NCBI RefSeq assembly: GCF_000026545.1
Contig: NC_011601.1
Origin: Escherichia coli O127:H6 str. E2348/69
GTDB lineage: Bacteria > Pseudomonadota > Gammaproteobacteria > Enterobacterales > Enterobacteriaceae
Reading direction: 5' to 3' (one strand)
Length of the DNA: 64,000 nucleotides
Numbering within the stretch: position 1 is the first letter of the stretch; each line of letters opens with the position of its first letter. Of this stretch, positions 61,192-63,555 are shown one piece after another. Under the pieces are notes generated by a model. The model was not told the origin of the DNA and did no database searches. It was given only the letters and a program-made list of their open reading frames with translations. The position numbers were made by a program, and so were the translations under genes.

Positions 61192-61940
61192 TGCAAAATC
61201 TGATGCCCCCGATAAATACACCGGATCAATTGTTTCATGATGGTGACCCCACTCAGGGGATAGAAGGAACCCTCGTGACTGCTGGTTATTTAAACAATCA
61301 GCAGGGGGCAACCCGTGATTTACAGCAGGAACTCCTTAATGTTCTTGGTGGTGCACATATTCAACCTGACCCCAAAAAAACGGATCAGCTACTTACCGCG
61401 CTTCGCGCGTTGCTGTTAAGCCGCAAGAATCCGTTTGGCGATATCAAATTGGACGGCACGGTGCAAAAGGCTCTCGAAAACCTTGGTTTGGGAGAAGGTG
61501 CTCCAGCTATTGGCGTTCCGTTCTTCTGGCCGTCCGCCGCAATGCCAGATACCGTAATCGAAAGCTGGTCCGGCATGGTGTTTTTGAAGTTCAACGGCGC
61601 GAAATTCTCTGCCACTGATTACCCTGTGCTGGCAAAAGTGTTTCCTTCGCTGGTATTACCTGAAGCCCGCGGTGACTTCATTCGTATCTGGGATGATGGG
61701 CGAGGGGCGGACAGTGGGCGAGCATTATTAAGCTGGCAGGCAGCAACATCTTTATCGCAATTTGGTGGTAATTATCCAGAAGGGTCCGGCCATGCGATTG
61801 CTGATTACGATGGAATATCAGCACACGAGCCAGGTTTCTCTCGATTTCAGTACACCAGTAACTCAGTAGGAGATGGTGTTAATTTTGTTGCTGTCAGACC
61901 GCGAAATATTGCATTTAACTTTCTGGTGAGGGCTAAATAA
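61191..61940 (+). CDS. Tail fibre protein S (constant N-terminus fused to G-segment variable part Sv)
   Basis: 249-aa ORF; the left gix site lies inside at codons ~94-102 (ALENLGLGE). Confidence 0.7.
61471..61496. repeat. gix-like recombination site, left (G-segment boundary)
   Basis: ctctcgaaaacc-tt-ggtttgggagaa; inverted partner at 63381-63406 (14-bp perfect core ttggtttgggagaa); hix/gix-like two half-sites around a central dinucleotide. Confidence 0.6.
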
Positions 61941-62533
61941 TGAAACCTGTTTTTGATGAAAATGGACTGGCTACAGTGCCGGGTGATATGCGTTGTTTTT
62001 ATTATGATGCAGTAACGTCTGAATATACGGGCTGGTCTGATGAATATATTAATACTGGCGTAAGTATGCCCGCCTGTTCCACTGGTATTGACCCGGGCGA
62101 AAACATTCCGGGGCAAGTGGCAGTATTCACGGGTAAGGGATGGAGCCATGAAGAGGACCATCGCAATGAGACTGTTTACTCAATCGAAAATGGCGCAGCT
62201 GTTACAGTGGATTATATCGGTGCCATCAAAGACGGTTATGTCACGCTTTCACCGTTAACGCCATACGATAAATGGGATGGTGAGAAATGGGTGACGGATA
62301 CCGAGGCACAGCATAGCGCCGCAGTAGACGCGGCAGAAGCACAGCGCCAGTTGCTGATTGATGCTGCAATGGCTTCCATTAGTCTGACTCAGCTGAAATT
62401 ACAGGCCGGGCGGAAACTGACGCAGGCAGAAACAACCCGGCTTAACGCTGTGCTGGATTACATTGACGCGGTGACGGCAACAGATACCAGCACCGCGCCG
62501 GATATCAATTGGCCTGCTCCCCCGGAGGCGTAG
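61940..62533 (+). CDS. Tail fibre assembly protein U
   Basis: 197-aa ORF directly after S, inside the invertible segment. Confidence 0.7.
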   Translation: MKPVFDENGLATVPGDMRCFYYDAVTSEYTGWSDEYINTGVSMPACSTGIDPGENIPGQVAVFTGKGWSHEEDHRNETVYSIENGAAVTVDYIGAIKDGYVTLSPLTPYDKWDGEKWVTDTEAQHSAAVDAAEAQRQLLIDAAMASISLTQLKLQAGRKLTQAETTRLNAVLDYIDAVTATDTSTAPDINWPAPPEA

Positions 62534-62951
62534 GCCAGACGGGATTTGATGTATCAACGCGCATCAGCAAGACCCGGTATTTTTTCCATTCAGATAACGC
62601 GGCGGTTTCTTCTGCCGTCGCGATTTCCGCATCAAAAGCATCCTGTCTCCAGACTATTTCCTTATCAGCCATAGAACGCAATACCGTTCTTTTCTGTTCA
62701 GCCTGAATAATCTGTTGTTCAGCGGAGAGTGGCGGGATATCAATCCACGCAGGATTACCATTTTTATCAGCCCCCAGCGTTTTGCCTTCTGGCGCTACGC
62801 CTGTGTAAATTGCCATTGTTTCATCATCAACATCAGCGCCATTTTCAGGCCATGAACCGGCGCTGATATATACATCTTTTAGTGCTTCCGGATAGAAAGA
62901 GCCTTTATAAAATTTATTCATTCTTAATACCCCAACGCGATAAAACAACAA
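62505..62951 (-). CDS. Alternative tail fibre assembly protein U'
   Basis: Convergent with U inside the G segment; true start may be the internal MNKFYKGS. Confidence 0.6.
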   Translation of the reverse strand: MLFYRVGVLRMNKFYKGSFYPEALKDVYISAGSWPENGADVDDETMAIYTGVAPEGKTLGADKNGNPAWIDIPPLSAEQQIIQAEQKRTVLRSMADKEIVWRQDAFDAEIATAEETAALSEWKKYRVLLMRVDTSNPVWPTPPGEQAN

Positions 62952-63433
62952 TCTTCGGTGCCCTCTCCGGATGGCGACCAGTTCTGAATACTGATATGCG
63001 TTCTGCTGGCAATACGCACATTCATCGCGGCATTGTAGCCAGATGTTCCACGGTTTCCGGTCGCAAACAAACCTGCATAGGGAAAAGCAAATGGTAAGGC
63101 ATATCCAGCATCAACTCCCTTTTGTGTTGCCACCGTTCCCCACTGCAACATAAGTTGCACCGGGTTTCCTGTCGTCGCAATGCATGGAATGTAGATGTAG
63201 CCATTACCTGACATCATTGACCTGAAGCTGTCTAAATCCAGTAACTTCGAGGCATTATCTGCTCCAACATCTCGTGTTGCAGCGGTCCCTAACTGGAGCG
63301 CATTTCGGAAGGCTGATACATCAGAAATATCAGATCCATTAGCCGATTTCTGCATAGCTCCGGAGGCTTTATCTATCGTTTCTCCCAAACCAACGTTTAT
63401 GAAAATGCAGAAATAACGAGCAAATGGCATCAT
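62924..63433 (-). CDS. Alternative tail fibre variable part S'v (currently not fused to the constant part)
   Basis: 169-aa reverse ORF whose 5' end crosses the right gix site (...NVGLGETIDKAS...), sharing the GLGE junction with S. Confidence 0.6.
   Translation of the reverse strand: MMPFARYFCIFINVGLGETIDKASGAMQKSANGSDISDVSAFRNALQLGTAATRDVGADNASKLLDLDSFRSMMSGNGYIYIPCIATTGNPVQLMLQWGTVATQKGVDAGYALPFAFPYAGLFATGNRGTSGYNAAMNVRIASRTHISIQNWSPSGEGTEDCCFIALGY
63381..63406. repeat. gix-like recombination site, right
   Basis: ttctcccaaacc-aa-cgtttatgaaaa, inverted relative to 61471-61496. Confidence 0.6.
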
Positions 63434-63459
63434 TCCTGCTTTTGTCAGGGTGATCTACC

Positions 63460-63555
63460 ATGTTTATAGGCTATGTACGCGCATCAACAAATGACCAGGA
63501 CACCGATTTACAACGCAATGCGTTGAACTGTGCAGGATATGAGCTGATTTTTTGA
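63460..63555 (+). pseudogene. gin-type serine invertase remnant (31 codons)
   Basis: MFIGYVRASTNDQDTDLQRNALNCAGYELIF* matches the N-terminus of Gin/Hin/Pin invertases including the catalytic Ser9 context, then stops; only about 115 bp remain before the prophage right end. Confidence 0.8.

Follow-up and report, generated by a model that had tools for sequence, protein, structure and literature searches.

The 64,000-nucleotide stretch of the Escherichia coli O127:H6 strain E2348/69 chromosome analyzed here (from NC_011601.1; hereafter the window, to which all coordinates refer unless another record is named) carries a whole Mu-like transposable prophage of 35.7 kb within eutC (27935..63670, plus strand). 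At the right end of this prophage lies the G segment, a tail-fiber region bracketed by inverted recombination sites and followed by the first codons of an invertase gene. Three chromosome assemblies of this enteropathogenic strain match the 64-kb window with 100% identity. The RefSeq annotation of the prophage lists Mu-type transposase A, AAA ATPase B, Mor, head, sheath, tape-measure and baseplate genes, a Mu transposase C-terminal domain protein and the AAA ATPase being encoded at the left end (~29300-32270). A preliminary description of this DNA had recognized a Mu-style host-range switch and had proposed that, its invertase gene gin being truncated, the tail-fiber orientation should be locked.

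The boundaries of the invertible segment are set by an inverted repeat of 19 nt (61478-61496 and 63380-63398) that is 95% complementary, with one mismatch. The repeat search combined with a site alignment defines two 26-bp crossover sites, the left one being CTCTCGAAAACCTTGGTTTGGGAGAA (61471..61496, core TT at 61483-61484) and the right one TTCTCCCAAACCAACGTTTATGAAAA (63380..63405, core AA at 63392-63393). Both contain the half-site TTCTCCCAAACC, and their 2-bp cores, AA and TT, are inverted relative to one another. The left site stands exactly where it had been described; the right one, previously placed at 63381-63406, was one base off. The left site falls within the tail-fiber gene S, at its GLGE codons. 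In the present orientation S encodes 249 aa (61191..61940, plus strand; tail-fiber PHROGs, E 1e-55), of which the constant part Sc extends from 61191 to ~61483 and is followed by the variable part Sv. Next comes U, the assembly chaperone of the S tail fiber (197 aa, 61940..62533, plus strand; phrog_105, E 1.7e-82). The minus strand carries the alternative tail-fiber assembly chaperone U' (138 aa, 62505..62921; phrog_188, E 5e-43) and the alternative C-terminal cassette S'v (62924..63379; tail-fiber and virion-protein PHROG matches). The matches of S, U, U' and S'v to tail-fiber and tail-fiber assembly PHROGs range from E 1e-18 to 1e-82. When the segment is inverted in silico, S'v joins Sc in frame to give a 253-aa S' followed by U', and both orientations are coding-competent. 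The repeats, the PHROG matches and the in-silico inversion all bear out the layout proposed earlier, that of a Mu-style host-range switch with Sv/U and U'/S'v on opposite strands between inverted sites.

Beyond the right site, a spacer (63406..63459, plus strand) aligns with the region separating the right site from the start codon in Mu gin and in P2-type invertase genes. It leads into an invertase open reading frame of 31 codons, MFIGYVRASTNDQDTDLQRNALNCAGYELIF, closed by a TGA stop (63460..63555, plus strand) and annotated by RefSeq as a partial pseudogene. This stub, whose length had been correctly described, aligns to residues 1-31 of Mu Gin and of other invertases. It includes the equivalent of Ser9, the catalytic serine of Gin (PMC3575834), and nothing past residue 31. 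One extra T within a T-run produces the stop codon. The gene had been said to end there and the stop is real, but degraded out-of-frame invertase homology, roughly codons 32-39, continues up to the right-end junction (63556..63582, plus strand) and fades out at ~63575-63582. The block common with the right ends of sister phages starts at 63575-63585, where the invertase homology stops. The sole E2348/69-specific difference in the stub/right-end block lies at 63556, one base past the stub stop, where this strain has A and 15/15 other family members have G. The mom gene is absent, with no gene between the stub and the phage end, and no recombinase other than the Mu-type transposase is annotated in the prophage.

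The phage right end itself (63583..63670) carries TTCTGGGC-type repeats at 63596(+), 63624(-) and 63646(-) and terminates with ...GAAGTTACA. Its terminus was set at 63670 (...GAAGTTACA, GTTACA) by aligning 16 family prophages inserted at different chromosomal sites, in all of which homology ends at this position, in agreement with the earlier estimate of a phage end ~115 bp past the stub stop. The left terminus is at 27935 (TGTGGGG...). The octamer TTCTGGGC occurs in three copies at each prophage end, beginning at position 18 from either terminus, and once elsewhere in the 64 kb. Annotation and comparison with K-12, where eutC runs uninterrupted over the prophage join, identify the host DNA on both sides as the 3' part (27507..27934, minus strand) and the 5' part (63671..64000, minus strand) of eutC. 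Assuming TG/CA termini, a perfect repeat of 4 bp (CACT; 27930-27934 and 63671-63674) represents the target duplication, where 5 bp would be expected for a Mu-type element; the overlap reaches 7 bp (ACACACT) when terminal phage bases are assigned to the host. A deletion that would have taken the phage right end along with gin is ruled out, because the prophage still has its TG/CA termini and transposase-site repeats and is flanked by both halves of eutC. The right transposition end is intact, and the loss of the remaining invertase gene was therefore an event internal to the phage. The same right end is present in 87 E. coli genomes (60 listed), each time bordering host DNA.

The orientation of the segment in E2348/69 can be read from published data. 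Goldberg et al. sequenced single colonies of this strain and found three invertible loci, one of them in a Mu prophage (Genome Med 2014; PMC4272514). Their Table S1 places this 'Mu' locus at NC_011601.1 2749478-2751398 and gives a forward orientation of 60 +/- 8 % in four single colonies. This span of 1920 bp corresponds to window 61478-63398, and the repeat listed for it, AAACCTTGGTTTGGGAGAA, matches window 61478-61496 exactly. The absence of an invertase at the 'Mu' locus is passed over in that paper without comment.

Deposited sequences provide independent examples of both orientations. When IMG/VR was scanned for the stub/right-end junction, a draft contig, L030, with the same eutC junction was recovered; its flanks align to the window without mismatches over 70 and 621 bp, and inverting its G segment reproduces ours exactly (0/1883 mismatches). 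Three more pairs of loci differ solely by a precise inversion: MEI148 and 20KM0223N, which share one insertion site (flank 0 mismatches in 5386 bp, inverted G segment 0/1846), GPEC349-628 and GPEC1176 (0/1797), and the IMG/VR contigs L031 and L032 (0/1871). The 15 classifiable chromosomal loci are divided 8 to 7 between the two orientation classes, a 16th, in strain 160-11H1, being too decayed to assign. Contigs L030 and L031 both end at most 60-70 bp from the left crossover site, and the first ~45 bp of L031 do not fit the expected Sc sequence; assemblers yield such contigs from mixed-orientation reads. A pure assembly artifact was considered as the source of the orientation differences and rejected, since it would itself require mixed read populations and therefore active inversion anyway. 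The switch in E2348/69 still flips, and the orientation lock proposed earlier is refuted both by the proportions in colonies and by the exact reverse complement in L030.

The rest of the genome, where the preliminary description had advised a search for serine invertases, contains two full-length Gin/Pin-type genes. They were found in NZ_LT827011.1 via the coordinates of PMC4272514, where P2-like prophages account for the other two invertible loci of E2348/69, with forward orientations of 90 and 93 %. One recombinase gene encodes 192 aa in the P2-like prophage near yfiB (2938747-2939325) and the other 199 aa in the P2-like prophage near ihfA (1852976-1853575). Their products, WP_001195986.1 and WP_001165545.1, both align with Mu Gin end to end. 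The crossover sites adjoining these genes are TTCTCCCAAACCAACGTTTAAGAAAA (25/26 identical to the window right site) and TTCCCCCAAACCAACGTTT.... A query with the stub gives three matches per E2348/69 chromosome because it detects these two genes in addition to the stub itself. MEI148 and 20KM0223N each have three extra matches of this kind. The tor-phoH region of E2348/69 is an effector island with no invertase, and no e14-like prophage is found at icd. The invertases Hin, Gin, Cin, Pin and Fin are interchangeable, according to the passage of PMC8987985 that cites Simon 1980, Tominaga 1997 and Kutsukake 2006. A related invertase acting in trans from elsewhere, which had been named as the fallback to locking, is the best explanation of the flipping: two full-length genes reside in the same chromosome, and the P2-prophage enzymes probably catalyze inversion of the Mu-like segment.

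Invertases of this type work with a recombinational enhancer, which in hin comprises two Fis sites 47 bp apart and ~100 bp from hixL (PMC3798978). Homology and a degenerate motif predict an enhancer with two candidate Fis sites inside the stub (63481..63544). The proximal candidate, GCATCAACAAATGAC (63481-63495), lies in an invariant block ~96 bp from the crossover center and 49 bp upstream of the distal candidate, GTGCAGGATATGAGC (63530-63544), which fits the Fis core GNNYRNNWNNYRNNC perfectly; spacing and distance agree with those of the hin enhancer. The position of the distal candidate, 140-146 bp from the crossover center, is kept in Mu gin, in both E2348/69 P2 genes and in the invertase gene of a P2-like prophage of strain 32-4. 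Invertase homology stops ~30-35 bp past this candidate, and the enhancer-homologous block is wholly retained. Judging from this homology to the hin/gin enhancer region, the earlier remark that the 5' part of gin carrying the enhancer had been kept was probably right. At 60 % forward, the Mu-like locus is nearer 50:50 than the P2 loci with their own enzymes (90 and 93 %), a balance that fits a working enhancer in cis; the predicted enhancer would make flipping efficient.

The truncation extends far beyond this strain. Stub, junction and right end (63440-63670) recur with 91-100% identity in 19 records, which represent 17 E. coli strains and ~14 insertion sites. The host genes adjoining these family prophages include eutC, pta, yeiP, mhpT, melA, scpC, sstT, a phn gene, hyfB, ydcA/hokB, pphA and others, and ~14 flanking genes over 17 strains amount to the near-random insertion typical of Mu-type elements. 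Near-identical phage ends are found at different sites in GF75 and MEI148, and again in tcmA_3 and E423; therefore, the phage went on moving with the stub in place. The stub is a lineage-wide feature and not a private lesion of the E2348/69 prophage. That most of gin is missing along with any mom gene had been rightly observed, but this absence is no damage specific to the present prophage, the same junction occurring in 17 strains and sister phages lacking both genes. Among the matches listed (60 of 87 E. coli genomes), none has an intact gin beside this right end. At the three non-stub sister loci inspected, the tail-fiber genes pass directly into the last ~90 bp with neither invertase nor mom, and the absence of mom is therefore part of the family architecture.

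Members of the family carry different tail-fiber cassettes, and the more divergent stubs (OkiPb01676, 210221272) show substitutions typical of other invertase alleles at an unchanged junction. This suggests that cassettes may have been exchanged by recombination with the stub as one homology arm. The P2-like prophage of strain 32-4 contains a G segment that is 95.8% identical to that of the window, crossover sites and start of the invertase gene included, together with a full invertase. The G segment and stub look like an imported tail-fiber module, whose junction falls at the edge of the minimal end. No close DNA relative of the prophage body was found among deposited phage genomes. The phage vB_EcoM-611R5 was set aside: it matches the G region, yet it is a different element with a truncated invertase of its own.

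Some records show other states of such regions. In the stub-bearing strain 47-1826 (L016), a 2288-bp segment with three crossover-type sites (~1130, 3000 and 3438) and two tandem S'v cassettes is a multi-inversion version of the same module. Strain 160-11H1 (L007 2353-3491) has frameshifts in the tail-fiber assembly genes of its segment, and its cassette can be matched to others in either orientation; this copy of the switch seems to be in decay. An unrelated phage record of prophage origin, ON470588.1 (L023 7955-8269), has an invertible tail-fiber region and then a 104-aa shortened 'DNA invertase'. Truncated invertases next to invertible tail-fiber segments may be common.

Taken together, we consider it likely that positions 61484-63392 form a functional host-range switch of the Gin/Pin type, and that the mobile Mu-like lineage to which it belongs carries the cis parts only, the invertase being supplied in trans. 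The lineage retains the two 26-bp crossover sites and the first ~115 bp of the invertase gene with the predicted enhancer, and this invertase fragment is fused directly to the minimal ~90-bp transposition end. According to this model, the recombinase would be provided in trans by other resident prophages, in E2348/69 by the P2-like ones located near yfiB and near ihfA. Inversion exchanges Sv/U and S'v/U' to produce in-frame tail fibers of 249 or 253 aa.

Several points weigh against this model. The tie of the P2 invertases to this segment is one that we infer, the enhancer is assigned by homology and a degenerate motif, and retention of the stub could result from one ancestral junction event without later selection. 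In three stub-bearing strains, tcmA_3, OkiPb01676 and OkiPb01690, the chromosome contains no further match to the invertase 5' region; the switch of these hosts may be silent, or may rely on an enzyme that is plasmid-borne or more divergent. The single orientation presented by all three RefSeq E2348/69 assemblies could also be listed here, but we regard it as uninformative rather than contrary.

A more ambitious version of the model can be offered only tentatively. The lineage might have evolved a standing dependence on the invertases of resident prophages, the gene fragment, trimmed back to the minimal transposition end, having been selected both as a cis enhancer and as the right homology arm for capturing tail-fiber cassettes of P2-like and lambdoid prophages; hosts lacking such prophages would be unable to run the switch.

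The alternative that survives best accepts that trans invertases flip the segment and regards the stub as neutral debris of a single junction event, its enhancer being unneeded or unused. One junction is found in all members, so a single event would suffice to account for the stub; moreover, enhancers can act from afar, and hyperactive invertase mutants that do without Fis are known. Nevertheless, wild-type invertases of the family are inactive unless an enhancer is on the same DNA, and the next nearest enhancers are ~230 kb and ~860 kb off. The Mu-like locus also equilibrates better than loci with their own invertase, the kept homology ends only ~30-35 bp beyond the distal Fis-like site, and the stub has persisted through 9% divergence and cassette replacement. 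We consequently view neutral debris as improbable.

Much harder to sustain is invertase-free inversion through RecA-dependent homologous recombination between the short inverted repeats, even though the repeats are inverted and the products of this route would be precise too. A minority of 40% per colony requires flipping at well >0.5% of the growth rate (PMC4272514, supplementary text 2). The repeat is just 19 nt with one mismatch, and each copy belongs to a canonical 26-bp invertase site centered on a 2-bp core. The flipping required far exceeds the capacity of RecA on ~20 bp, and we give this route very little credence. Least credible of all is a locked relic with truncated gin, frozen orientation and decaying module, for which speak an invertase of 31 codons that is surely non-functional, the same orientation in all three RefSeq assemblies and the frameshifted assembly genes of 160-11H1, but which is refuted for E2348/69 by read data from single-colony cultures (60:40) and contradicted by the exact reverse complement in L030, by the three other pairs differing solely by precise inversion and by the intact reading frames of both orientations. 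A locked state could exist in hosts without any invertase, for example tcmA_3.

The remainder of the window and its surroundings deserve brief mention. A DNA methyltransferase gene (~41379-42119) lies in the late region of the prophage between DUF1804 and the large terminase, and might take the anti-restriction role played by mom in Mu. Just outside the window, eutA is split by ISEc13 (L001 11776-13149, corresponding to NZ_LT827011.1 2713988-2715361); with the prophage in eutC, the eut operon of E2348/69 is therefore broken twice. A second copy of ISEc13 is located between cysP and ucpA (~9802-11175). The hemF-eutR interval (~19312-25148) contains four genes not found in K-12, encoding a hypothetical protein, a 1149-aa SNF2-related protein, a DUF1963 protein and a small open reading frame, which could be a small defense or accessory island.

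Flipping of this locus had already been published, and cross-complementation between invertases is textbook knowledge. What appears to be new is a mobile Mu-like lineage that naturally carries the cis elements only, its enzyme being furnished by resident prophages. Under the model of a cis-only switch served in trans, a phage has kept its host-range switch, discarded the enzyme and uses those of unrelated co-resident prophages, a natural case of a borrowed enzyme in which tail-fiber bet-hedging would depend on the prophage content of the host. If this dependence is true, host-range diversification becomes conditional on the resident prophage community. The same model would account for the published, unexplained observation from 2014 of flipping in the E2348/69 'Mu' prophage (PMC4272514). 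The sites and the ~115-bp predicted enhancer constitute a natural minimal cis set that could be used for enhancer studies in vivo. The locus also calls for caution in annotation: a truncated invertase beside an invertible segment does not imply that the segment is fixed.

Among known systems, bacteriophage Mu likewise has Sc-Sv/U and U'/S'v arranged as alternatives at the right end of a transposable genome, with 26-bp inverted sites and a homologous invertase 5' region and spacer. Other Mu-type traits are also present, namely transposase A with ATPase B and TG...CA termini with repeated motifs. However, Mu has a 193-aa Gin, com/mom and ~115 bp to its end, whereas the prophage described here has a 31-codon stub fused to the right end and no com/mom module. 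Its tail fibers are of 249 aa versus 504 aa in Mu, and its crossover sites are of the e14 Pin type, closer to Pin than to Mu gix. The e14 P segment of K-12, recombined by PinE, has the same 19-nt repeat AAACCTTGGTTTGGGAGAA (PMC4272514 Table S1), also swaps a tail-fiber C-terminus and is near 50:50 in colonies; e14 carries pinE beside its segment, where the present prophage has the stub. The P2-like loci resemble it by near-identical sites in E2348/69 (yfiB, ihfA) and by the 95.8% identical G segment of 32-4, and differ by their full-length recombinase genes (192-199 aa). Relative to the Hin/Gin/Cin/Pin systems at large, the segment displays the inverted 26-bp sites with an identical 2-bp core and occurs in both orientations with precise junctions; of the cognate invertase that those systems keep next to or inside the segment, 31 codons remain, and full-length enzymes are encoded elsewhere in the genome. 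A functional parallel is the cross-complementation known for Hin, Gin, Cin, Pin and Fin, in which the invertase of one element inverts the segment of another, as stated in the relevant passage of PMC8987985. In the cases covered there, each segment normally has its own invertase and the exchange was shown with mutants, whereas here the separation of segment and enzyme is the natural state of a whole lineage.

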